From an uncultured Gammaproteobacteria bacterium (lineage in GTDB: Bacteria > Patescibacteriota > Microgenomatia > Daviesbacterales > UBA10151), in NCBI GenBank assembly GCA_964360965.1, contig CAYHYM010000003.1:34102-66101 (forward strand): 32,000 nucleotides of DNA, given 5' to 3'. A program made the translations under genes and the position numbers. Shown one piece after another: positions 1,835 through 30,699 of the stretch. Each line of letters starts with the position of its first letter. The stretch's first letter is position 1. The notes under the pieces were generated by a model. The model was given only the letters and a program-made list of their open reading frames with translations, was not told the origin of the DNA and searched no databases.

Positions 1835-2732
1835 AATTATTAAATACCCATTCAATAATCTGTTTAGTTTCCTCAAATCTATCATCTGATCCCAAAAGCA
1901 CTATTAAAACTTGATGTCCCTCTCGCTCCACCAGGGTAACTAAATTCTCTTTTGACTGCGGTGTTGTCCCTGTCTTCACTCCCAAAACTCCTATCACTTC
2001 AGATAAAAGTTTATTTAAATTTTGTAATTTATGTTGATATTTTTTATCCAAAGATAAAACTTCTGTTTCTTTGGTGGCAAAAATTCTTTTCAGCTGAGAA
2101 TCTTTTAAAGCCTCCTGAGTAATTTTGGCAATATCTTCCGCGGTTGAAAAATGATCTGCAGAATCAAAACCTGCCGGATTATCAAAATGGCTATTTTTAA
2201 GGGATAAACTAACCGCTTTTTCATTCATTTTATTTATAAATTCTTTTTCTCCTCCGGCATAATTTTGGGCAATGGTATAGGCAGCATCATTGCCGGAAGG
2301 CAGCAACATTCCGAAAAGTAACGCCCGAAAAGTTAATGATTCCCCTTTTACCAAACCTATCCTTGTTCCGGATATTTGAGTTCCTTGATATATCAGCACC
2401 GAGTTGGGTCTAAAATATTCTACTCCCACCAGCGCTGTCATAATTTTGGTAAGAGAACCAACAGCTAATTTTAAATTTGCATCTTTTTGATAAAGTACCT
2501 CATCTGTTGCCAAGTCTTTAATTAGCATCGCCCGGGCAAAAATATAAGGAGGAGGAATATTTAAACTTACGGGAGGAAGATTGTATTTTTGCACTCCTGC
2601 AATTTGGGCATTATTTTGAGGAATTTGTAAAGATAAAAGTATATCCTCTGTTGAGTCTATTAGTATTGGAATGCTATTTACCACAATGATTGCACATATA
2701 ATAAACACTACGGAATACAGATAATGCTTCAT
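1815..2732 (-). CDS. D-alanyl-D-alanine carboxypeptidase, peptidase S11 / PBP5-like
   Basis: The ordered active-site motifs are SLTK (SxxK), SGN (SxN) and KTG. There is an N-terminal hydrophobic anchor. The ATG overlaps the aspS stop in an ATGA arrangement. Confidence 0.85.
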   Translation of the reverse strand: MKHYLYSVVFIICAIIVVNSIPILIDSTEDILLSLQIPQNNAQIAGVQKYNLPPVSLNIPPPYIFARAMLIKDLATDEVLYQKDANLKLAVGSLTKIMTALVGVEYFRPNSVLIYQGTQISGTRIGLVKGESLTFRALLFGMLLPSGNDAAYTIAQNYAGGEKEFINKMNEKAVSLSLKNSHFDNPAGFDSADHFSTAEDIAKITQEALKDSQLKRIFATKETEVLSLDKKYQHKLQNLNKLLSEVIGVLGVKTGTTPQSKENLVTLVEREGHQVLIVLLGSDDRFEETKQIIEWVFNNFIWPAQ

Positions 2733-4087
2733 TTAGTTAATCTAACATCCACTCTTTCCATATCTCTGGGAAAAAGCGAAGCTTGCCTGATATTAGAAAG
2801 GTTTAAGACGTGCATGGTAATTCTTTCTAAGCCGAAAGAGAAACCTCCTTCTGACGGCATGCCAAATTTAAAAGCCATCAAATACATCTCAAAATCTTTA
2901 GGATCCATCCCATGTGCTTTAATTGATTCCACTAATTGTTTATAGTCATTAATTCTTTGAGAACCACTCATTATTTCAACCCCTCTAAATAGAAGGTCAT
3001 AGCTTAAGGAATAATCCGGATCTTTTGGATCAGGTTTGGTATAAAAAGGTTTTGATTGGGTTGGAAAATGAGTAATGGTCACAAAATCGCAGTGATGTTT
3101 TTCTTTTGCCCATTTGCAGATATCGATCTCATCCTGCGGAGTTAAATCTTTTTCTTTCCTGTTATCCCTTCCAAACTCTTTTAATATAACTTCCTGGGCT
3201 TCCCTAAGTGTCAATCTCGGAATATCTCCGAAAGCTATCTGTTCCATTCCAAGTTCTTTTAAAATATCACCACATCCATTTTCAGTTTGCTTTAATGTCT
3301 CCACTGCAACTTTTTCTAAAAGATCCAAAAGATCTTCAAACTCCACAAAACCTATCTCACAATCCATTTGAGTAATTTCCGATAAATGTCTTGTTGTCAC
3401 AGAAGGTTCTGCTCTATATGCTTTTGTGATTGTAAAAACTCTTTCAAGGGATGGAACCAACATTTGTTTGTAAAGTTGCGGGCTTTGGGTCAAAAAGGCT
3501 TTATGACCATAATAGTCAACTTTAAACACTTGTGCTCCTCCTTCTGTAGATGAGGCGACAATGGTTGGAACAACAATCTCAGTGCAACCAATTTCTTTTG
3601 CAGCCTTTCTGAATCCTTCCAAAATACTCGCTTGAACTCTAAATATTGCTTTAACTTTTGGATGGCGCAAAGTGAGAGAGCGAAAATCCAAAAGGGTTGG
3701 TAGTTGTAAATCCAAATCTTTTCCTCCCATATCAAACGGTAGCTCTTCTGCTTTTGACAAGATTTCCATGGAATCTGCAGATATTTCTATTTCACCTGTG
3801 GGAATATTTTCATTGACCAGATTTTCTGGCCGCTTGTTAACTTTTCCAGTTATACAAACTACATCTTGGGAGTGTAGGCTACCCACCTCGAAGGTGGGCT
3901 CTGACTCCTTCGAGGTAGATTTTGTCTGTTGTGATACTACCACTTGTATTAATCCACTTCTATCTAAGATATCCAAAAATAAAATCTTGCCATGGTCACG
4001 GCGGGTTTGCACCCACCCACAAACCTCAACAGATTCCCCAACTTTTTTACTACAATCTAGAATGAGAGTACGTTCCATAAATGTCAT
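2729..4087 (-). CDS. aspS: Aspartyl-tRNA synthetase, archaeal/type-2 (~450 aa) class IIb
   Basis: Has an N-terminal OB fold. Contains LTQSPQLYKQ and motif 2 AYRAEPSVTTRHLSE. The C-terminus reads GMPSEGGFSFGLERITM...FPRD. SPQLYKQ favours Asp over Asn specificity. Confidence 0.9.
   Translation of the reverse strand: MTFMERTLILDCSKKVGESVEVCGWVQTRRDHGKILFLDILDRSGLIQVVVSQQTKSTSKESEPTFEVGSLHSQDVVCITGKVNKRPENLVNENIPTGEIEISADSMEILSKAEELPFDMGGKDLDLQLPTLLDFRSLTLRHPKVKAIFRVQASILEGFRKAAKEIGCTEIVVPTIVASSTEGGAQVFKVDYYGHKAFLTQSPQLYKQMLVPSLERVFTITKAYRAEPSVTTRHLSEITQMDCEIGFVEFEDLLDLLEKVAVETLKQTENGCGDILKELGMEQIAFGDIPRLTLREAQEVILKEFGRDNRKEKDLTPQDEIDICKWAKEKHHCDFVTITHFPTQSKPFYTKPDPKDPDYSLSYDLLFRGVEIMSGSQRINDYKQLVESIKAHGMDPKDFEMYLMAFKFGMPSEGGFSFGLERITMHVLNLSNIRQASLFPRDMERVDVRLTK
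3884..3917. repeat. Short form (34 nt) of the CACCTCGRAGG-TIR element, in frame inside aspS
   Basis: Sequence is cacctcgaagg-tgggctctgact-ccttcgaggta. The ends are 10/11 reverse complements. The core is 10/12 identical to the copy at 15087-15098. It encodes about TSKESEPTFEV in a loop of the OB domain and is locally GC-rich. Confidence 0.6.
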
Positions 4088-4175: not shown

Positions 4176-4304
4176 ATGTCAAAAGTTGAAGTTATAGATT
4201 TGAAAAGATTTGTCCTGCCGCAGGCAGTTTCTTTTGAAACAATTTTGCTTGGCCTCCTTTTGGTGCTCATTATGGGCGCCTTTTTGGGAGGTCTTTTTAG
4301 GTAA
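4176..4304 (+). CDS. Small hydrophobic peptide, 42 aa (hypothetical)
   Basis: Below the 60-aa cutoff of the ORF track. Sequence is MSKVEVIDLKRFVLPQAVSFETILLGLLLVLIMGAFLGGLFR, with one C-terminal TM-like helix. It is bracketed by a consensus promoter and an intrinsic terminator. It has no SD. Confidence 0.35.
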   Translation: MSKVEVIDLKRFVLPQAVSFETILLGLLLVLIMGAFLGGLFR

Positions 4305-4331
4305 ATAACACCTAAAAAAGATTGAAATTAG

Positions 4332-4355
4332 ACCTCCCAAATGGGAGGTTTTTTT
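4332..4355 (+). terminator. Rho-independent terminator
   Basis: acctccc-aaat-gggaggt followed by a T7 run. It is preceded by a second perfect 10-bp hairpin, ctttttaggt-aaataac-acctaaaaag, at 4293-4319. Confidence 0.6.
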
Positions 4356-4378
4356 ATGGATGAAAGGAGGTGGACATT

Positions 4379-6329: not shown

Positions 6330-6370
6330 CACCTCGCAGGTGAAGAAAATGCAGTTACACCTGCGAGGTG
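6330..6370. repeat. Perfect 13-bp inverted repeat (CACCTCGCAGGTG-N15-CACCTGCGAGGTG), related to the TIR element family
   Basis: The arms at 6330-6342 and 6358-6370 are exact reverse complements. Each arm is also self-palindromic. It lies in the divergent recJ/cca intergenic region. The left arm supplies the recJ SD. Confidence 0.7.
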
Positions 6371-6420: not shown

Positions 6421-7833
6421 ATGAACTACTCATTACCTAACGAGGTTAAAAATATTTTAGAAAAGTTTAAAAAAGCCAAATTTCAAATTTATATTGTGGG
6501 AGGAGCTGTCCGTGATCTTTTAATGGAAAAAGGGGTTAAAGATTGGGATTTCACCACTGATGCCAAACCGGAGGAGATTATAAAATTATTTCCGGAAGGT
6601 TTTTACGATAACAAATTTGGAACAGTAGGAATTCCTATAGAAGTGGGAAAAGACACTTTGGATGGTGGCAGGCTGAAGCGAAGCGTAATCCATGACTCCT
6701 CCGAGGTGGAAGTATATGAAATCACCACCATGCGAAAGGAAGGAGTATACAAGGATTACAGACACCCAGACAAAGTGGCATGGACAGATAAAATTGAACA
6801 AGATCTAGGCAGACGTGACTTTACTGTTAATGCCATTGCCCTTTCCGTCATCCCGACAAATGTCGGGATCCAATTAACAGATCCATTTAATGGCCAGCAG
6901 GATATGAAGGATAAGATAATCAAAGCCGTGGGTGATCCTGGCAAAAGATTTCAAGAAGATGCTCTTCGTTTAATAAGAGCAATCAGAATTGCCACCCAGT
7001 TAGAATTTGACATAGATGAAAAAACTTATTCTGCCATCAAAAAAAATGCTCATCTTTTAAAAGAAGTTTCCCGGGAAAGAATTCGTGATGAGCTCTTTAA
7101 AATACTTGCATCTGGCAATCCTCACTCCGGTATAGTGAAATTGAGAGAAACAGGCTTACTACAAATAATCTTACCCGAACTTGAAAGATGTTTTGGCATT
7201 GTCCAGGAAGGACCCAAACATGATAGAGTTTATGATATTGGAAACCATTCCCTGCTCACTCTTCAACATACACCGTCTACTGATCCGTTAACCAGATTTG
7301 CAGCACTTTTGCATGATATTGGCAAACCGGACACTGTTAACACTGCTCAAGATGGCAATGTCACTTTTTACCATCATGATGTGATTGGTGGAAAATTGAT
7401 TTTAAAAATTGGGAAAAAGTTTAATTTATCGAAAAAGCAAAAAGATAAATTATACCGCTTAGTGAGATGGCACTTATTTACTGTTGATGAAAATCAAACA
7501 GACTCTGCCATCAGAAGATTTATAAAAAATGTGGGGTTAGATTATATAGAAGATATGATGGCATTACGTATTGGAGACAGATTGGGAGGAGGGACCCAAA
7601 AAGCTGTCTCTTGGAGAATGGAAAAATTCGCTGATCGAATAAAACAAGTCCTTAAAAAACCATTCTCTATTTCTGATCTAAAAGTAAATGGCCATGATGT
7701 AATGGAAGTTTTAAAAATCAAACCAGGCCCCAAGGTTGGTGAAATCCTCCAAAAACTTTTTGAAGAAGTCCTAGAAGATTCATCTAAAAATAATCGGAAT
7801 TATCTTATTGATAGAATGAAGGAACTTGGTTAG
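6421..7833 (+). CDS. cca: CCA-adding tRNA nucleotidyltransferase with HD domain
   Basis: ORF track 6322..7833 (TTG). The homologous N-terminus starts at ATG 6421, MNYSLPNEVKNILEKFKKAKFQIYIVGGAVRDLL. Motifs present are DWDF, RRDFTVNA, EDALRLIRAIR and HD LLHDIGKP. Confidence 0.85.
   Translation: MNYSLPNEVKNILEKFKKAKFQIYIVGGAVRDLLMEKGVKDWDFTTDAKPEEIIKLFPEGFYDNKFGTVGIPIEVGKDTLDGGRLKRSVIHDSSEVEVYEITTMRKEGVYKDYRHPDKVAWTDKIEQDLGRRDFTVNAIALSVIPTNVGIQLTDPFNGQQDMKDKIIKAVGDPGKRFQEDALRLIRAIRIATQLEFDIDEKTYSAIKKNAHLLKEVSRERIRDELFKILASGNPHSGIVKLRETGLLQIILPELERCFGIVQEGPKHDRVYDIGNHSLLTLQHTPSTDPLTRFAALLHDIGKPDTVNTAQDGNVTFYHHDVIGGKLILKIGKKFNLSKKQKDKLYRLVRWHLFTVDENQTDSAIRRFIKNVGLDYIEDMMALRIGDRLGGGTQKAVSWRMEKFADRIKQVLKKPFSISDLKVNGHDVMEVLKIKPGPKVGEILQKLFEEVLEDSSKNNRNYLIDRMKELG
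6654..6708. repeat. Long form (55 nt) of the TIR element, in frame inside cca
   Basis: Sequence is cactttggatgg-tggcaggctgaagcgaagcgtaatccatgact-cctccgaggtg. The right end is exactly the reverse complement of CACCTCGGAGG. The core starts TGG and ends GACT, as in the other copies. It encodes about TLDGGRLKRSVIHDSSEV. Confidence 0.55.
6850..6869. repeat. 9-bp perfect palindromic hairpin (ATCCCGACA-aa-TGTCGGGAT) in frame inside cca
   Basis: A GC-rich island that encodes VIPTNVGI immediately after the conserved RRDFTVNAIAL motif. There is a single copy in this window. Confidence 0.5.
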
Positions 7834-14976: not shown

Positions 14977-15019
14977 AAGTTACTCTTTTAATATAACTTA
15001 TGAGTACAATTGTTGTCAA

Positions 15020-15075: not shown

Positions 15076-15100
15076 CACCTCGGAGGTGGACTCTAACTCC
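15076..15100. repeat. Short-form TIR element copy, right end degenerate
   Basis: Sequence is cacctcggagg-tggactctaact-cc. The left TIR is identical to the miaA copy. The core is 10/12 identical to the aspS copy. It abuts the stop codon (15103-15105) of the C39-like gene. Confidence 0.55.
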
Positions 15101-15102
15101 TA

Positions 15103-15639
15103 TCAGAAAGTGACTAAGATTGGGCAAAAAACTAAATAGGTTCTTAAACTATCAATAGCCTTCGTAATTCTTTCAATAGTGAAATAAAATCTTTTACCTT
15201 TCCAGGGATCAATAATCACAATTTTATCTCCAATCATTTTCTCAACTAACACAAAATGTGGAGCATGTACACTATGTCTTAAGTAATATATGTCTAAGTG
15301 TAAAATAAATAATTTTTGCTTATGAATTATTTTCTGAATAAAGGGAATATTAATTCTTTGAAATTCTATCTCAAGCTTTCGATTAACAGGTAGATTTTTT
15401 AAGACTTTAGTGAAATATTTGTTACCTACCCATACTTTCAAGGGAAGATTAAATTTTGTTGAGAACTCATTTAAAATACCTATATGGTAAATCTCTCTCG
15501 CAAACAGTATTCCTTTAAACAAAAGTTCTTGTTCATCCTCCAGCTTAAAACTGGTTCCTTTTATGTAAGATAACCACATCAGCAAACAGGCAGGAAGACA
15601 ACTTTCGCAGGTGGTCTGTTTATAGGGAATAATTCTCAT
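15103..15639 (-). CDS. Stand-alone peptidase C39-like (papain-fold) cysteine peptidase domain protein
   Basis: YKQTTCESCLPACLLM has the Q-x5-C spacing of C39 domains. HFVLVEKMIGDKIVIIDP matches the His...Asp-Pro part. It is 178 aa, with no transporter domain and no signal peptide. Confidence 0.6.
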   Translation of the reverse strand: MRIIPYKQTTCESCLPACLLMWLSYIKGTSFKLEDEQELLFKGILFAREIYHIGILNEFSTKFNLPLKVWVGNKYFTKVLKNLPVNRKLEIEFQRINIPFIQKIIHKQKLFILHLDIYYLRHSVHAPHFVLVEKMIGDKIVIIDPWKGKRFYFTIERITKAIDSLRTYLVFCPILVTF

Positions 15640-16728: not shown

Positions 16729-18268
16729 AGTGACTTTCATCTCTTGACCTGTATTGAAGGGCTTCGGCAATATGTTCAGTTAAAATACTATCCAATCCAT
16801 CAAGATCAGCAATGGTGCGTGATAATTTAAGCACCCTATGATAACCTCTGGCTGATAAATTAATTGATGATATTGCCTGTTTTAAAAGCTCCAACCCTTC
16901 TTGAGTAATTTGGCAAAAATTCTTGATCTCCGCATTTCCCATTTCCGAATTAGTTAAAATATGGCCGGTTTTAAATCTCCCTCTTTGAATCTGGCGGGCT
17001 CTAATTACTCTTTTCCTAATGGCCTTGGAATCCTCAACAGTCAAATCAGCTGATAATTTATCAACATCAACTGCCGGAATTTCCAGATAAATATCAATTC
17101 TATCAAGCAAAGGACCGGAAACTCTACGCTGATATTTGGCAATCTGACCAGGAAAACAACTACATTGACGCTTTTTGTCACCCAAAAACCCGCATGGACA
17201 GGGATTTTGAGCGGCAAGCAATATAAATTGCGCAGGAAATGTTAAAGTTCCGGCAGCGCGTGAGATGGTAATATGATGATCCTCCAGCGGTTGACGCAAT
17301 GCCTCTAAAACATATCTGGGAAATTCAGGAAACTCATCCAGAAAAAGTACCCCCCTATGAGCCAAAGATATCTCTCCCGGTCTTGGGGTATTTCCTCCGC
17401 CAATAAGACCTATATGAGAAGCGCTGTGATGAGGTGTTCTAAATGGTCTTTGGGTTATCAAAGATTGCCCGTTGCCTAAATTACCGGATATAGAATAAAT
17501 TTTGGTTACCTCTATCGCTTCATCAAAGGTAAGCGGAGGCAGTATTGATGGAAATGATCGGGCAAGCATTGTTTTACCGGCTCCCGGAGGACCCTTTAAT
17601 AGAACATTATGTCCTCCGGCGGCAGCTATCTCCAAAGCTCTTTTGGCGTGCTCCTGTCCTTTAATTTGGGAAAAATCATATCCATAATTTATATCCTCCT
17701 CAAACTCAATTTTTTGAGGTTTAACTGGATTTGTTAATTTTTGACCTAATAAAATTTGAGTTACATCTTTTAAACTATTACATGCCAGTACTTTTACCCC
17801 TTTAACTATTGCTGCCTCCTGTCCATTATCTTTTGGAACAATCATTGTTTTAAAACCCCTCTGTTTGGAAAGTACTGCCAGCGGCAATACTCCCTTAGTT
17901 TTTCTTAAATCACCATCCAAAGACAGCTCACCAACAACCAGGACTCTATCCAAATCCAATCCGTTATCACTACCATTTGGAACCTGTCCTGATGCCAAAA
18001 GCAATCCCAAGGCAATTGGCAAATCATATTGCGGCCCCTCTTTGGGAAGATCTGCGGGAGCAAGATTAACAATTATTTTTCTGGATGGAAAATCACCACC
18101 TGAGTTTTTGATGGCAGATCTTACTCTTTCCTTTGATTCCTCAACTGCCCGATCAGCCAACCCTACTATGGTAAAAGAGGGCAGCCCTTGTGAGGCAATA
18201 TCAACTTCTACCTCAATTGGTACTCCATCAAGACCGACATTGGCACCAGATAAAATTTTAGCAAGCAT
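16727..18268 (-). CDS. comM: Mg-chelatase-like AAA+ ATPase, ComM/YifB family
   Basis: Has Walker A GPPGAGKT, Walker B VLFLDEFPEF and an N-terminal Lon-protease-like domain. The ORF track starts at TTG 18280. ATG 18268 (MLAKILSG...) fits the family N-terminus better. Confidence 0.85.
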   Translation of the reverse strand: MLAKILSGANVGLDGVPIEVEVDIASQGLPSFTIVGLADRAVEESKERVRSAIKNSGGDFPSRKIIVNLAPADLPKEGPQYDLPIALGLLLASGQVPNGSDNGLDLDRVLVVGELSLDGDLRKTKGVLPLAVLSKQRGFKTMIVPKDNGQEAAIVKGVKVLACNSLKDVTQILLGQKLTNPVKPQKIEFEEDINYGYDFSQIKGQEHAKRALEIAAAGGHNVLLKGPPGAGKTMLARSFPSILPPLTFDEAIEVTKIYSISGNLGNGQSLITQRPFRTPHHSASHIGLIGGGNTPRPGEISLAHRGVLFLDEFPEFPRYVLEALRQPLEDHHITISRAAGTLTFPAQFILLAAQNPCPCGFLGDKKRQCSCFPGQIAKYQRRVSGPLLDRIDIYLEIPAVDVDKLSADLTVEDSKAIRKRVIRARQIQRGRFKTGHILTNSEMGNAEIKNFCQITQEGLELLKQAISSINLSARGYHRVLKLSRTIADLDGLDSILTEHIAEALQYRSRDESH

Positions 18269-18302: not shown

Positions 18303-18589
18303 TGCCTAGGAAGAAGGATGATTGCTACGTTCAGTTTACATGAACGTAGAGGAAAGTCCAGACAGCAAAGAGCAGGGTGTCCGGCGTAAGACGGAGGTCG
18401 TAAGATCCAGTTAGAGCAACAGTGACGAACCGAGGTAATGCTCGGATGAAACGGGCAATCCTCCCCGCTGCAATCCTAGAATCGGTCAGGTTGCTCGCCT
18501 GATGACCGGAGTAAGGAGCATTAGATAAATGATCATCAATCCTGACTAAATCGGGATGAACAGAATCTGGCTTACTCTCATCCTAGGCA
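18303..18589 (+). ncRNA. rnpB: RNase P RNA, bacterial type A, reduced size (~287 nt)
   Basis: The P1 pairing is TGCCTAGGA...TCCTAGGCA. The P4 strands are GAGGAAAGTCCAGAC and ACAGAATCTGGCTTAC. Other conserved stretches are CAGGGTG, AGAGCAACAGTGA and TTAGATAAATGA. The last 7 nt overlap the stop of the AI-2E gene on the other strand. Confidence 0.85.
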
Positions 18590-19551
18590 CTTTTTTCTTC
18601 TAATACTTCCATCCAAACTACTTGCAAAACAACCACAATCGGTACCGCCAAAAGTGCTCCCCCAAATCCTAAAAGTCTGGTCCCCACAGCCACAGCCAAA
18701 ATAATAATTAAGGGATTTAAGCCTACTGCTCTTTTCATAACTTGCGGCACTATCAGATTATTTTCCAGCTGCTGAATAATAAAATACCAACCGACAACAG
18801 CAGCTGTTATAACCGGAGAAATAGTCAGCGCCAAAATAACTGCCGGAATTGCGGCAATGATCGGTCCAATAACCGGCACCACCTCCATGATTGCAGCAAG
18901 TAAAGCCAGAGGTAGCGCATAGGGAATATTTAAAATAATCAGCCCCAAATATACCAGCAATCCAATAATAATACTCAAAAACAACTGGCCCCTTACCCAT
19001 GCTCCCAGCTTTTCCTCTATTCTGATGATAGATTTTCTGATCTGTCCTGATCTTTCTCCAAATAAAGAAGGAGTTTTTTCTTCTAAACTCTCTTTTTCTA
19101 AAAGCAGATAGAAGGTTAAAACTAAAACAAAAATCACCGTGATAAGATTACTGAATACTTCCAGGGTTATGGAAAAGATATTTTTGGAAAGATTGACCAA
19201 TTGTGACTGAAAAACCGTGTCGTTAACATCTGACAGGTTAAATTGATCGGCTAGTAAAGGCGGAAGAGCAGAAATTAACCTGTTGCTTTGTTCAATAAGC
19301 GGCGGCAATAAAATGGCCAAAATGCCTGCCACTGCTGCTATTATGAAAATGTATGAAATGATAATTCCCAATGCTTTAGGCAATTTTAACTTAGTAAAAA
19401 AATTCACCAGAGGAGAAAGAGCAGACATCAAAATTACTGCCACAAATAAAAGGATTAACAGATCTCTTATTAAGTAAAGCACCCAAAGACCCAAAATAAA
19501 AATGGTGATAAAAATAATTGTTTTATGTGAAATATCAATTTTTCTTGGCAT
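18583..19551 (-). CDS. AI-2E family transporter (PerM/UPF0118)
   Basis: 322 aa with about 8 TM helices, in the layout and Gly/Pro-rich C-terminal helices typical of the family. Confidence 0.7.
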   Translation of the reverse strand: MPRKIDISHKTIIFITIFILGLWVLYLIRDLLILLFVAVILMSALSPLVNFFTKLKLPKALGIIISYIFIIAAVAGILAILLPPLIEQSNRLISALPPLLADQFNLSDVNDTVFQSQLVNLSKNIFSITLEVFSNLITVIFVLVLTFYLLLEKESLEEKTPSLFGERSGQIRKSIIRIEEKLGAWVRGQLFLSIIIGLLVYLGLIILNIPYALPLALLAAIMEVVPVIGPIIAAIPAVILALTISPVITAAVVGWYFIIQQLENNLIVPQVMKRAVGLNPLIIILAVAVGTRLLGFGGALLAVPIVVVLQVVWMEVLEEKSA

Positions 19552-20560
19552 TTTTTTTATTTATAGCACTATCATACCATTTAGCTACCAAGTTTTCTAT
19601 TTGAAGAGAGTAATCTTTACCTGTAATATCAAACCAATTAATACTCTTTTCCTTTTTAAACCATGTTAGCTGACGTCTTACATAGCCGTGGATTTTGTTT
19701 TGCATTATTCTAATCAGCTCATTCTTATTTTTAATTTTACCCTCCAAATAATCTGCCAAAACTCCATACTCTAACCCTAATTCTCTCATTCTTTTAAGCG
19801 ATAAGCCATTTCCATGAAGTTTTTTTGCCTCCTCAATCATCCCCTGGTTTATGCGAGCTACAACTCTCTCATCCACTCTTTGATATAAAATCTTACGCGG
19901 AGCACTCAACCCTATTTTTAAAACATTATAAGATGCAACACCACCTCGGAGGTGGCCCGCTTCGCAGCGAGGCGAGCCGTAAGGACTCCTCCTAGGTGAA
20001 ATATCAAGCTCGATTGCCCTTATTAACCTTCTTGAATTCTCCCTATCAGATTGATTTAAACTTTCCCATTTTTCAGGAGAAACCTTTTTTAACTTTTCTT
20101 GTAACTCTGCTTTAGATAATTTAGCCAGTCTATTTCTTAATTTTTTATCTACAGGTATGGCCAAATTTGGCAACCCCTCAAATATCGCTTTTAGATATAA
20201 ACCTGTGCCACCCACTATAATTGGCAGCTTCCCCTTTGCCCTAATTTCCCCAATCACCCTGTCTGCATCTTTAACATAATCAGCCACACTGTATTGTTTT
20301 TTTGGAGAAACCACATCATACATCCAAATTTTTATTCCATCTATTTCCCAATAACCTATATCATTAGACCTACAAGGTCTTATGCGTTTGACCTCATAGG
20401 TCGAATTAGATGGCATCTTGCCGGTGCCTATATCCAGTCCCCCATATATTTGTCTGGAATCACAAGATACCAACTCACCATTAAATTTCTTGGCCAAGTA
20501 AAGTGCCAAATCAGTTTTACCTGTAGCGGTCGGTCCCAAAATAACTAAAAGTTTTTTCAT
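19535..20560 (-). CDS. miaA: tRNA dimethylallyltransferase
   Basis: Has the P-loop GPTATGKT, SCDSRQIYGGLDIGTGK and IIVGGTGLY. It carries an internal repeat insertion, listed separately. Confidence 0.9.
   Translation of the reverse strand: MKKLLVILGPTATGKTDLALYLAKKFNGELVSCDSRQIYGGLDIGTGKMPSNSTYEVKRIRPCRSNDIGYWEIDGIKIWMYDVVSPKKQYSVADYVKDADRVIGEIRAKGKLPIIVGGTGLYLKAIFEGLPNLAIPVDKKLRNRLAKLSKAELQEKLKKVSPEKWESLNQSDRENSRRLIRAIELDISPRRSPYGSPRCEAGHLRGGVASYNVLKIGLSAPRKILYQRVDERVVARINQGMIEEAKKLHGNGLSLKRMRELGLEYGVLADYLEGKIKNKNELIRIMQNKIHGYVRRQLTWFKKEKSINWFDITGKDYSLQIENLVAKWYDSAINKKNAKKN
19942..19998. repeat. Long form (57 nt = 19 codons) of the TIR element, in frame inside miaA
   Basis: Sequence is cacctcggagg-tggcccgcttcgcagcgaggcgagccgtaaggact-cctcctaggtg. 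The TIRs match 10/11. GC is far above the flanks. It encodes about SPRRSPYGSPRCEAGHLRG. Confidence 0.65.
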
Positions 20561-27432: not shown

Positions 27433-28125
27433 TTATCTCTTTTCCAAAACATTTGCAACTACATTTTTAACAACGGAATATTCAAACCCTCTTCTTAATA
27501 AAAATTCCCATGCTTTTTTCTTCAAATCTCGTAGAGATTTCTCGTTCAATTCATCCTCCGGCAAGCTTTTCCATACCTTCATTTTTTTCTCCAAAGCCTG
27601 AGAAGCTACCTCTTCTTCACTGTCCCCTGTACCCTGTTCACTGATCACTTTTTCAATTATTTCCCTATCAATACCTTTTTGATAAAGTTCCTGCTTTAGA
27701 GCAATCTTACCTTTTTTTCTAGACCTTCTCCTTGCCTCAACCCAACTTTTTGCAAACTCTTCATCGGACAAAAGCCCCTTTTGTTTTAATTTAGTAATTA
27801 AAAGTTCTATTGCAGCTTCTGAGATTTCTTCTTTGTCTTTTATTTTTCTTTTAAAAGATAAGTTCTTTAAATATCTTCTAACTTCTTCCTCTGATCTTGC
27901 TCTAATATTAAAAAGTCTATACATTCTTTCCATCAACTTCCCAACTTCTGCCTCAAATAACAACTTTTCCACATCGGATGTGTCAAGTACTTTTTCCACC
28001 ATTAACCGATGCTCAACCACTAAATCCTCATCTGCCCCAAAGGCAAACTGCCCATCAAGATAAATATTAAATCTGTGCGGGTTTTTTTTCTGAGGTTCTA
28101 CTGATGTAATCTTTATCATAGACAA
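27433..28125 (-). CDS. recX: RecA regulator RecX
   Basis: Has an N-terminal ...FNIYLDGQFAFG... segment followed by repeated helical units with RSEEEVRRYL. It lies in the recA operon. Confidence 0.75.
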   Translation of the reverse strand: MSMIKITSVEPQKKNPHRFNIYLDGQFAFGADEDLVVEHRLMVEKVLDTSDVEKLLFEAEVGKLMERMYRLFNIRARSEEEVRRYLKNLSFKRKIKDKEEISEAAIELLITKLKQKGLLSDEEFAKSWVEARRRSRKKGKIALKQELYQKGIDREIIEKVISEQGTGDSEEEVASQALEKKMKVWKSLPEDELNEKSLRDLKKKAWEFLLRRGFEYSVVKNVVANVLEKR

Positions 28126-29628
28126 TTAATACTTTTCCCTTTTTTGAACTTTAATTGTACCAAACTTTTGCTCTTGGATTACTTTGGAAAAATAATTTTC
28201 CTTGTTGATAAAATCCGCAACAATATAATCACTAATACCTACCACAGGTTCAATAATCAAAAACCTGGTCAACGGCAAATCTGAGCGGGAAGTTACAATC
28301 TTAAGGTTTCCCGGGAAACCTGCTGCCGCATCCCCCCCCCAAACCGGTAAGATTCCATACCTTTCTTGTCCATACCATTCAAACAAATAACTCCAGGTGG
28401 TGTTTACAAAAAGTGGCACTGTCAAAGCATTTATTGAAAAAGGTTTTCCACCGGCCTTAATATAAATATAATCTATCACCTTTTTTTGATCTGAAATAAA
28501 CATCCCCGGTTGGATAATGATATCGGAGTTAGGTCCAGAAATATTATTTTTTAAAATTAAGTGTAAATTACCTACCACTATCATCAGAGTTAAAATAACC
28601 GCCGCAATTTTCCACTTTAAAAACAACCTGTAAATTAAATAACTTGCCAAAATAATTAAACTAACAGTTGCCCCGCCGCTGTAATAATAGCTGAAACGGG
28701 CAGATAAAATATGCGGAAGAAATCCCCCTACAAACCAGATCAAAAGAAAGACAATTTTTGGCCGAAGATCTCTACTGCGATAAAGCAAAAATAAAATAAC
28801 AACTGTCAAAACTAAAATTAAATTCACCAGCCCATCAACTGCCACCAGGTTATCTTTAAAAAATCGCTGGATGACAGAAAATATATAAGTAAAATCTGAT
28901 AGATTGGATCCATCAGATTTTGAGAAGGAATTCAAAATATTAAAAATTGCCTTTGTGGATCTAAAATTAAATTTTAATTCCCCCAAAATAAAAGTGGAAA
29001 CACTCAAAAGAAAAACTGCTGTTGATATTACAATCGTCTTGAGGGTTAAATTTTTAAATTGTTTTCTAAAAGCTATCACTATTAAAAGAAGTACTAAAAT
29101 TAACAATCCATAAACTGCTTCAAGCTGAACTGATAATCCCAACCCCATTAAAGCAATCATTAAACCATACTGTTTATTTTTAAATAAAAAAAGAGCCATC
29201 CCTAAGTAAAAAATTAAAACCGTTAAAGGGGAAGGAGAGGGATGTCCAAAAATTAAAGAATACTGTGATTGTTCATAGGATACGGCAAAAAGAAGGGCAG
29301 CTAAAAAACCGATCCATTTATTAAAAATAATAGACCCCAAACCAAAAGCTAAAAATATACCCAGTGCGTTTATAATACGAAGTAAAAATGAGACAACTTC
29401 CGGATTATGAAACCCCAAAAAATATGCCGGAGCAATCAGATAATAAAACAATACTCCATGGAAAAGACCACTACTTAAAGAGGTTGGAGGACCGACAATT
29501 TTTAAATTCCCTGTCAGAATATCTAAGGCAGCAAAAGAATCTCTAGCGCCATCGTATGAAAAGTAAATATTTTCCGGAAAATATAAAAAACGGATTAAAA
29601 TGGCAAGGATAAAAATTGCAATTAGCAT
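28126..29628 (-). CDS. Polytopic membrane protein, GT-C/ArnT-PMT-like glycosyltransferase candidate (500 aa)
   Basis: The N-terminus is ILIRFLYFPENIYFSYDGARDS, a first-loop acidic motif. It has about 12 TM helices and a C-terminal soluble domain. There is zero intergenic distance to both recA and recX. Confidence 0.5.
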   Translation of the reverse strand: MLIAIFILAILIRFLYFPENIYFSYDGARDSFAALDILTGNLKIVGPPTSLSSGLFHGVLFYYLIAPAYFLGFHNPEVVSFLLRIINALGIFLAFGLGSIIFNKWIGFLAALLFAVSYEQSQYSLIFGHPSPSPLTVLIFYLGMALFLFKNKQYGLMIALMGLGLSVQLEAVYGLLILVLLLIVIAFRKQFKNLTLKTIVISTAVFLLSVSTFILGELKFNFRSTKAIFNILNSFSKSDGSNLSDFTYIFSVIQRFFKDNLVAVDGLVNLILVLTVVILFLLYRSRDLRPKIVFLLIWFVGGFLPHILSARFSYYYSGGATVSLIILASYLIYRLFLKWKIAAVILTLMIVVGNLHLILKNNISGPNSDIIIQPGMFISDQKKVIDYIYIKAGGKPFSINALTVPLFVNTTWSYLFEWYGQERYGILPVWGGDAAAGFPGNLKIVTSRSDLPLTRFLIIEPVVGISDYIVADFINKENYFSKVIQEQKFGTIKVQKREKY

Positions 29629-30699
29629 CTATCCTTCTGCAATTGTACCAGTATCTTCTTGATTATCTTCTTTGCCAACTACCAACTCTTTTCCTTCCTT
29701 TTGCTTTCCCCAAGCTTCTATAATTTCTTTTCCCAGTTTTTCAGCTTCTTTTTTATTGGTTTTTAGCCAAACAATAACTGCCTCTCTTCCCTGACCAAGT
29801 ACCGCCTCATTCCACTTAATAAATGCCCCGGCTTTAACCAGTATCCCCAGTTCCACCCCCACATCAATTAGCTCTCCTTCATGCGAGATACCTTCCTCAT
29901 ACATATCAAACTCGGCAATTCTAAAAGGTGGAGCCACTTTATTTTTTACCACTTTGACTCTATGACGAGATCCCACCACCAAATCCCCATCTTTAATATT
30001 TTCAATTTTTCTAATATCAAGCCTTACCGATGCATAAAATTTTAGCGCTAAACCCCCTGTGGTAACCTCGGGATTACCAAACATCACCCCAATTTTTTGC
30101 CTTAACTGATTGGTAAATATGACAATGGTATTGGTATTGGCAATTGCGCCGGTCAATTTTCTCAAAGCCTGAGACATTAATCTGGCCTGCATTCCCATCA
30201 TGGCATCACCCATTTCTCCCTCAATCTCTGCCCTGGGCACTAAGGCTGCCACTGAATCAATCGCTATGATATCAACTCCACCTGAACGAATTAAAGCCTC
30301 AGCAATTTCCAAAGCCTGCTCCCCTGTATCTGGTTGAGAGATAAGTAAATCATCTAAGTTAATACCAATCTTTTGAGCTCTTTGGGAATCTAAGGCATGT
30401 TCTGCATCAATAAAGGCGGCTACGCCGCTCTTCTTTTGAGCCTCAGCTATCACATGCAAAGCCAGTGTAGTTTTACCTGAAGCCTCTGGTCCATATATTT
30501 CTATAATTCTTCCCTTGGGAAGTCCTCCCACTCCCAAAGCCAAATCCAAGGCAATAGAGCCTGTGGATATTACCTCTGTTGCCAGTTTTTCCACCCGCTC
30601 ACCCAAACGCATAATAGCACCTGTACCATATTGCTTTTGGATAGCAGCTACCGCAACAGAGACGGCAATCATTTTGGCATCTTGATTATTTCCTGCCAT
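29629..30699 (-). CDS. recA: Recombinase RecA
   Basis: Has Walker [10 protein letters not shown], and FIDAEHALD and [23 protein letters not shown]. Confidence 0.95.

Follow-up and report, generated by a model that had tools for sequence, protein, structure and literature searches.

The locus considered here raises a simple question, i.e., what a GC-rich palindrome of 57 nucleotides (nt) is doing inside a housekeeping gene whose reading frame it leaves unbroken. It lies in a 32,000-nt stretch of contig CAYHYM010000003.1 (assembly GCA_964360965.1, positions 34,102 to 66,101), termed the window below, where the hairpin at 19942-19998 of the forward strand has the sequence CACCTCGGAGG-TGGCCCGCTTCGCAGCGAGGCGAGCCGTAAGGACT-CCTCCTAGGTG, with 11-nt arms that contain one mismatch (C6 opposite T). 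The open reading frame (ORF) for MiaA, located at 19535-20560 on the reverse strand, runs through the hairpin and translates it as SPRRSPYGSPRCEAGHLRG (...ELDI-SPRRSPYGSPRCEAGHLRG-GVASYNVLKIGL), as the first-pass annotation of this DNA had recognised; the TGG...ACT loop ends lie on the forward strand, and the element is accordingly antisense to miaA. The hairpin belongs to a widespread, apparently undescribed family of miniature hairpins in genomes of the Candidate Phyla Radiation (CPR), and its members are probably selfish elements, akin to repetitive extragenic palindromes (REPs), which would rely on mobilisation in trans, undergo translation and be accommodated in surface loops of housekeeping proteins. 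CPR genomes measure about 1 Mb, possess almost no intergenic space and are usually called poor in mobile elements.

Homologs of MiaA and of the aspartyl-tRNA synthetase (AspRS) place the window in Candidatus Daviesbacteria (Microgenomates, CPR). A genome scan with a pattern for the short form of the element returned 14 true copies in metagenome-assembled genomes (MAGs) of Daviesbacteria, Curtissbacteria and Patescibacteria, and pattern matches in L003 and L006 were set aside as chance. Some of the matching MAGs are labelled 'Gammaproteobacteria', and their GC content of 36-38% and synteny with the window suggest that these low-GC bins are probably mislabelled CPR bins. A metagenome scan in which the loop and two stem positions were left free gave more than 120 loci among the matches listed. 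More than 100 copies were recovered from Daviesbacteria, Curtissbacteria and other low-GC, CPR-like contigs. The same element is present at orthologous and at non-orthologous sites in NCBI, ENA, JGI and Logan assemblies. Within the window, the arm motif (at most one mismatch) occurs nine times against 0.12 expected, a 75-fold enrichment, and ACCT-N3-AGGT occurs seven times against 0.30 expected. The proposed scan for further copies thus bears out the earlier suggestion of a dispersed family, which is neither a chance pattern nor an assembly artefact.

Other identities were considered and rejected. A phage origin found no backing in a scan of viral contigs, which yielded one irrelevant match with 65% GC, and a known RNA family or tRNA-like piece was likewise discarded, as Rfam searches (gathering threshold for the whole window; E<=10 at the locus) matched RNase P RNA only; ARAGORN returned no match. 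Full-text literature searches for the arm and loop strings, or for CPR in combination with palindromic or in-frame elements, returned no published description, and a paper on Microgenomates genomes reports no mobile elements (PMC7143001).

The basic unit of the family, as found in low-GC contigs (CACCTCGRRGG-loop-CCYYCGAGGTG), consists of the arm CACCTCGRRGG, a T.T mismatch, a G-C pair, a G.A mismatch, a short inner stem and loop, and the arm CCYYCGAGGTG, which is followed by the dinucleotide RA. The commonest unit length is 34 nt, with window copies ranging from 34 to 57 nt, and five of the six reading frames are free of stop codons. With R and Y left free in the search pattern, R8R9 was found to be complementary to Y3'Y4' in 91 of 94 copies (AA/TT 38, GA/TC 34, GG/CC 19 and AG/CT 0), and 99.8% of the stem cells in the alignment are paired, a value that none of 500 shuffles attained. 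The TGG...ACT loop ends continue the stem by way of an invariant T.T mismatch and an invariant G-C pair, followed by G.A (24 copies), A.G (four), T-A (three) or another combination (two). The core consists of a single 34-nt hairpin whose internal mismatches are conserved and whose RA flank is polar: among 90 non-redundant copies, the first position after ...CGAGGTG is a purine in 84 and the second is A in 71, the 5' flank being weakly RA. Each arm lies within a 13-mer palindrome, CACCT-N3-AGGTG, and arrays of the form arm-loop-arm'-loop-arm exist, in which the middle 13-mer is common to both units.

The inner modules that fill the space between the arms are listed in Table 1. The modules M1 and M2 also occur alone, far from any arm, indicating that these two are independent small hairpins that nest into the outer one. 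The first-pass annotation had assigned a common GCGAAGC-containing segment to the long forms; this does not hold, as the motif lies on opposite strands in the two long forms and within different inner modules. Of note, other small GC-rich hairpin families are present in the same genomes, among them stem-TGAGCGAAGTCGAA-stem (translated as FDFAQD or FDYAQDK), CCGCTTCGC..GCGAGGCG, and repeats translating to WIPAYAGMT. They were observed in L013, L014, L027, L034, L043, L064 and L065 and in the MiaA orthologs P0020, P0034 and P0093, where they lie inside genes and are also nested in each other.

Table 1. Positions (window numbering) of the miaA element and its relatives in the window, together with the inner modules of the family.
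Feature	Position	Strand	Sequence or product	Context or basis
miaA element	arms 19942-19952 and 19988-19998; loop 19953-19987 (35 nt)	+		TGG...ACT loop ends set the orientation
miaA host gene	19535-20560	-	tRNA dimethylallyltransferase, 341 aa	homologs, AlphaFold model
Nested inner hairpin module M1, 21 nt	19958-19978	+	CGCTTCGCAGCGAGGCGAGCC, peptide SPRCEAG	orthologs without M1, L086, solo M1
AA flank 3' of miaA element	19999-20000	+	AA	instance of the family-wide RA rule
Short 34-nt copy	3884-3917	+	loop TGGGCTCTGACT, peptide TSKESEPTFEV	in AspRS gene 2729-4087 (-)
Long copy	6654-6708	+	5' arm decayed to CACTTTGGATGG; loop of 32 nt, TGGCAGGCTGAAGCGAAGCGTAATCCATGACT	in CCA-adding enzyme gene (+)
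Short copy	15076-15112	+	3' arm decayed to CCTATCAGAAAGTG	abuts/overlaps stop codon of ORF 15103-15639 (-)
Paired 13-mer palindromes	6330-6370	+	CACCTCGCAGGTG and CACCTGCGAGGTG, spacer of 15 AT-rich nt	recJ-cca intergenic
Inner module, 12 nt			TGGGCTYTGACT	gives the commonest 34-nt unit
Inner module			TGGCC-GAAG/GAAT/GTAA-GGACT	common loop TGGCC-GNNN-GGACT
Inner module			TGG-CGAGG-CAGAGA-CCTCG-ACT	inner stem covaries with CGAAG/CTTCG
Inner module			stem-TGAGCGAAGTCGAA-stem	peptide FDFAQD
Inner module			GGCTGAAGCGAAGCGAAAGCC	cca-type loop

The miaA copy had been taken as the prototype of the family. Judging from sequence comparison it is instead a derived composite, i.e., an old orthologous insertion whose loop harbours a second, small hairpin. 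In the window this loop consists of TGGCC-GTAA-GGACT with the 21-nt M1 insert added, removal of which restores the common loop TGGCCGTAAGGACT; many MiaA orthologs read SPRRSPYGHLRGG, that is, the form without M1, and the same composite was found in L086. The copy folds with a z-score of -3.1 relative to shuffled controls. A comparison with MiaA structures and orthologs, proposed earlier as a check, agrees with a loop insertion: the AlphaFold model has a mean predicted local distance difference test (pLDDT) value of 79, residues 191-204 fall below 50 and form a coil between helix 176-187 and strand 212-219, and in solved MiaA structures the insert segment corresponds by alignment to a variable linker, which is hypervariable among orthologs, some of which are without the element. 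On this model, the insert would be tolerated as a low-confidence coil in a surface loop.

The exact window MiaA is encoded on contigs from Hainich groundwater, the source contigs being of low coverage. In a replicate assembly of the same Hainich population (L018:940-995), a 1-nt deletion in the miaA element (GGGCC to GGGC) splits the gene into ORFs of 213 and 124 amino acids; at 3x coverage, either an error in sequencing the GC hairpin or a true frameshift allele could explain this. A second palindromic insert is present in miaA at 20366-20402 (-), namely GACCTATGAGGTC-AAACGCATAA-GACCTTGTAGGTC, with the peptide TYEVKRIRPCRS. It displays the ACCT-N3-AGGT architecture of the element family but has G...C as its outer bases, and it lies in a region of low pLDDT; a related peptide, TYEVKRTGPRRS, occurs in scattered MiaA orthologs.

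Four related copies had been reported elsewhere in the window, and all are found at those places, although the pair at 6330-6370 has the arms alone in common with the family and the copy beginning at 15076 extends to 15112. The aspS copy occupies an OB-fold loop between the IQVV and QDVV strands of an archaeal-type AspRS, scores 48.3 bits against the covariance model and has a fold z-score of -3.9; its last base, A, creates a U.G pair in the mRNA. The copy at 15076-15112 is not present in the syntenic intergenic regions of L019, L021 and L022. The feature at 6330-6370 is a perfect 13-bp inverted repeat with a fold z-score of -6.1, and its spacer is unrelated to the family loops. A covariance model built from 34 foreign copies and run with filters off returned no further full copy in the whole window. 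The pair at 6330-6370, which sits in the divergent recJ-cca intergenic region, represents a subtype in which two full palindromes, CACCTCNNAGGTG, stand 15-26 AT-rich nt apart, as also observed in L032, L044, L027 and L005:2608-2659; the L032 and L044 pairs have near-identical spacers, and the arm centre is altered in concert on both arms.

The copies reside predominantly in genes. Among 88 loop-typed copies, 75 (~85%) lie in open frames of at least 450 nt and the remainder are intergenic, none visibly splitting a gene; this intragenic share roughly equals coding density. The host ORFs match 94 Pfam families and include Met-, Leu-, Ile- and Asp-tRNA synthetases, RF1/2, YchF, Map/PepP, HMG-CoA reductase, MurB, Mur ligases, CCA and glycosyltransferases. 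Orientation relative to the host gene is the same in 34 cases and opposite in 41. The copies make use of four of the five frames without stops and never of the frame with TGA. The open frame PRRWALTPSR (same orientation, offset 1) is absent from the ~33 copies of the 34-nt class, the other open frames accounting for 13, 10, 8 and 3, and this gap may reflect the codon phase of an RA target. A selected peptide module was ruled out, since the miaA and aspS sites use different frames of the same DNA and both orientations occur.

Orthologous sites reveal how the element behaves over time. The miaA site is filled in four syntenic Daviesbacteria loci (L019-L022) with identical nucleotide junctions (...ATTT/CACC...GGTG/GT...) and with loops of 14, 15, 26 and 50 nt that cannot be aligned. 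Across the five sequences the arms are ~94.5% identical, as compared to 66% for the genes and 48% for third codon positions. Arm changes amount to one substitution each in the window and L022, both synonymous and pair-breaking, and one 1-nt insertion in L021. In the latter the 5' arm is read in another frame (FTSEES) and the original frame is regained through an additional G in the other arm, which implies a constraint on nucleotides rather than on peptide. The cca site is orthologous in the window, L145 (the same sequence as L005) and L146, the copies in L145 and L146 being perfect and short; the stems read GGAtGG/CCTCC (window), GAAGG/CCTTC (L145) and GGGGG/CCCCC (L146), and two compensatory pairs differ.

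The AspRS site adds gain and loss to this picture. Most of 120 orthologs possess a short, empty loop such as VSGEKAPDLHPQ, and approximately 25 carry the element in that OB-fold loop (TSKESKPTFEV, HLEGVKAHLRG or HLGGV...). In a neighbour-joining tree, filled orthologs are scattered among empty ones, including filled/empty sister pairs. The element DNA is identical at 32-33 of 34 positions in the window, L145 and L146, with diverged flanks and, in L146, a different frame. The stem variant follows the site and not the genome, with GAAGG at aspS in three genomes and GGAGG at miaA in five. Genome-wide concerted evolution as the source of arm conservation is unlikely, since stem variants are mixed within genomes and common across orthologous sites.

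These observations are most readily read in terms of a selfish, REP-like hairpin. The element would spread, or would once have spread, to new sites including coding sequence; copies landing in frame in tolerant surface loops would survive and be transcribed and translated as 11-19 extra residues, after which the loops would change in place through indels and the nesting of other small hairpin modules, as may have given rise to the 57-nt miaA copy. An HUH/Y1-type (REP/IS200-like) enzyme, or another that recognises structure, would mobilise the hairpin in trans while it is single-stranded. Four observations point to an enzyme acting on single strands, namely biased strand usage, conserved mismatches, a flank with polarity and no clear target duplication. 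During replication, quasipalindrome template-switch correction would help to keep the arms complementary; template switching is able to preserve hairpins and to produce perfect stems and apparent compensatory changes without selection (PMC8794818, PMC7202029).

The strand bias is seen in several ways. The TGG...ACT strand is the C-rich strand, as defined by GC skew, in 51 of 67 copies, and in 36 of 50 (p=0.003) after removal of orthologous duplicates and with a host ORF required; divided by host-gene strand, the ratios are 23:7 and 13:7, and the majority coding-strand proxy gives 19 of 27 (p=0.05). In the window, all four loop-typed copies lie on the forward strand, and the skew is negative throughout. 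The one lost frame predicts a 60:40 split by gene orientation, and with this adjustment 26 copies are expected against 36 observed (z ~2.9). In IS200/IS605 and REP systems, single-strand transposition acts at the replication fork or lagging-strand template (PMC5027513, PMC3333891), and Y1 enzymes are associated with REPs (PMC5027513, PMC3333891, PMC3479197).

Several points weigh against a selfish, mobilised hairpin. The strand bias rests on the GC skew of short contigs, with replication direction inferred from that skew. Pfam searches of the unannotated window ORFs and of the multi-copy locus L117 returned no transposase or nuclease, and a tblastn search of ~1 Mb of sampled loci with an approximate IS608 TnpA query found no Y1 match. 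The copy number, at tens per genome, is a rough estimate. The closest empty AspRS ortholog (L144, 80% amino acid identity) is too diverged in the loop to define an insertion junction. That mRNA and protein retain the insert is inferred from open frames only; the peptides SPYGSPR, CEAGHLR and ESEPTFEVGSLHSQDVVCITGK would mark its read-through. Finally, conservation at orthologous sites is much higher in the arms than in the genes, which is unexpected for inert selfish DNA and could mean that the hairpin has a function. These persistent, perfect arms are the main unexplained point, and selection on a functional hairpin is the main rival explanation.

Under that rival, the element is a functional cis-element selected inside genes as a structure bound by a CPR-specific protein, its spread being secondary. 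Candidate roles lie in the stability or processing of mRNA, in pausing of translation at domain boundaries, or in replication and the organisation of the chromosome. The near-identity of the miaA arms around unalignable loops, the two compensatory cca pairs and the tracking of stem variants by site all favour it, as do the invariant T.T, the covariation of G.A with A.G and T-A, the absence of AG/CT stems, and the fact that the window stem transitions in cca and aspS yield G.U in the mRNA sense. However, the two gene orientations are about equally frequent, presence among close orthologs is patchy, decayed copies are tolerated, and hosts and positions have nothing in common except loop tolerance. 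Furthermore, a wobble test comparing G.U with A.C strands was even (~4 versus 3, with few imperfect copies), Rfam returned no match at the element, and template-switch correction mimics compensatory evolution without selection (PMC8794818). We regard a functional cis-element of this kind as unlikely.

A related notion, to which we assign a distinctly low probability, is that the hairpin is actively maintained in essential CPR genes as the recognition site of a CPR-specific enzyme acting on single-stranded DNA (ssDNA) or RNA, with the 11-bp stem, the invariant T.T mismatch and the covarying G.A pair as its signature. The arms would then stay intact at orthologous sites across deep divergence through their use by the host or by a domesticated HUH-type enzyme, and a design of 34 + 2 nt would guarantee in-frame insertion, the 34-nt unit plus RA amounting to 36 nt, or 12 codons.

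The element had also been described as resembling a MITE (a transposable element of the miniature inverted-repeat type), i.e., a deletion derivative of an insertion sequence (IS) with a DDE transposase, whose terminal inverted repeats would correspond to the arms and whose 2-bp target duplication would correspond to RA, so that an insertion of 34 + 2 = 36 nt would leave the frame intact. The 11-bp inverted termini fit this description, RA is over-represented on either side of the 34-nt class (upstream in 20 of 33, downstream in 19 of 33), and AspRS of the TSKES lineage exceeds its empty orthologs by exactly 12 residues. The fit is nevertheless loose. Exact 2-nt duplications are at chance level (16 matches versus 14.6 expected), and in the other size classes the arm-to-arm length takes every residue modulo 3. 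The 34-nt core is shorter than known MITEs (~50-500 bp), and its supposed terminal repeats are the stem of one continuous hairpin with conserved mismatches. No parent IS, in the sense of one bounded by the element arms, was found in ~1 Mb of loci, and a strand bias is not expected of cut-and-paste DDE elements. A classical MITE is very unlikely.

Excision of the element from mRNA, or ribosomal bypassing in the manner of yeast mitochondrial byp elements or T4 gene 60, would suit a GC-rich hairpin inside the coding sequence of an AT-rich genome, whose arms hold strings that resemble Shine-Dalgarno and anti-Shine-Dalgarno sequences, and the split miaA of L018 points in the same direction. The Shine-Dalgarno and anti-Shine-Dalgarno strings that the first-pass annotation noted in the arms are indeed there as sequence, and any role of theirs would be putative. 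Excision or bypassing is, however, extremely improbable: in all the intragenic copies examined the host frame stays open and the stop frame is avoided, which would be needless if the element were skipped. Compensating indels have re-established the frame in L021, in L146 and in the cca copy of the window, and the L018 sequence has only 3x coverage. An artefact or chance palindrome, arising from assembly chimeras or low-complexity coincidence, has nothing in its favour except the low coverage of the source contigs and can be dismissed in view of independent copies across many assemblies and assemblers, conserved orthologous positions and strong enrichment statistics.

Selfish palindromes residing within genes have been a known concept for 25 years. 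Rickettsia palindromic elements (RPEs; Ogata et al. 2000, as summarised in PMC10969869) insert in frame into genes and resemble the present family in being palindromic selfish repeats that lie in frame in unrelated housekeeping genes of a reduced, AT-rich genome, are translated as an extra peptide at tolerant surface positions, and also occur between genes. The RPE analogy drawn in the first-pass annotation stands at the level of mode of action. RPEs measure ~100-150 bp and encode one conserved peptide, whereas the core described here is 34 nt and, used in four frames and both orientations, gives four different peptides. The present element is about three times smaller, belongs to a different phylum (CPR Microgenomates) and stands out by its modular, nested loop, its conserved internal mismatches, the polarity of its RA flank and its biased strand usage.

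In structural terms, REP/REPIN elements and the end hairpins of IS200/IS605 are similar, consisting of single imperfect hairpins of 20-40 nt with conserved mismatches (PMC3333891, PMC3116915, PMC3479197, PMC5027513), with polarity provided by a short flank, no clear target duplication and an orientation linked to the replication strand, a likeness to IS200/IS605 that is indirect here, as it relies on GC-skew and coding-strand proxies. The doublets and arrays likewise recall REPs in being BIME-like. REPs are extragenic by definition, usually number in the hundreds and bear GTAG or CGTC tags (PMC3733652), whereas this element is ~85% intragenic, numbers tens per genome, starts with CACC, and has the ends CACC...GGTG followed by RA. 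Searches of the window, of L117 and of ~1 Mb of sampled loci did not turn up a RAYT or TnpA.

Mobile GC-rich palindromic clusters, or 'byp' elements, were reportedly described in mitochondrial protein genes by Lang et al. (2014, PNAS), and the present family resembles them, since both consist of GC-rich hairpins of short length (27-55 nt) dispersed over the coding regions of a compact, AT-rich genome. The difference is that a byp interrupts the frame and the ribosome passes over it, whereas here the frame is always kept, implying read-through. Quasipalindrome template switching (PMC7202029, PMC8794818) is a mutational process and not an element family, and does not account for the same 34 nt in unrelated genes. 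The family thus fails at least one defining feature of each known class, i.e., size and single peptide for RPEs, extragenic location and tag for REPs, and size and parent IS for MITEs. Its closest functional analogue is the RPE, and its closest structural analogues are REP/REPIN elements and IS200/IS605 end hairpins.

A selfish, mobilised hairpin of this kind would indicate that selfish DNA can persist in reduced genomes by shrinking to ~12 codons, with nearly all frames open, inside essential genes. It would also explain odd peptides that recur in CPR catalogues (PRRS...HLRG, TSKESEPTFEV, FDFAQD) as well as loop-length variation in conserved enzymes, with relevance for annotation, alignment, phylogenomics and structure prediction. 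The extreme miniaturisation, nested modules, conserved non-canonical pairs, strand bias and deep orthologous conservation in CPR are likely to be unexpected to specialists. Arm conservation with compensatory changes provides a natural test between selection on nucleic-acid structure and template-switch correction, and a dedicated enzyme that recognises the T.T/G.A hairpin, if it exists, would represent a new hairpin-specific ssDNA tool.

A number of other features were observed in the window. A bacterial class A RNase P RNA is located at 18306-18590 (+), scoring 125 bits with 285 nt against a 367-position model, and overlaps the end of ORF 18583-19551 by 8 nt. An ORF for a PMT_2-like membrane glycosyltransferase of 500 amino acids (28126-29628, -) lies between recA (29629-30699) and recX (27433-28125), which are adjacent in the syntenic loci L019 and L021. 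The intergenic region upstream of aspS contains an intrinsic-terminator-like hairpin, AGACCTCCCAAATGGGAGGTTTTTTT, at 4283-4356, and a 12-nt perfect inverted partner (4283-4294/4330-4341) ahead of it. A GC-rich imperfect inverted repeat, TACCGGCTCCCGGAGGAC/GTCCTCCGGCGGCAGCTA, is situated at 17575-17628 in a ComM/Mg-chelatase-like gene, the most GC-rich part of the window. Finally, a promoter-like TTGACAA-N17-TATATTTAAAGAGTAACTTATG at 14977-15010, upstream of a DUF4446 gene, is strongly conserved in the window, L019, L021 and L022.

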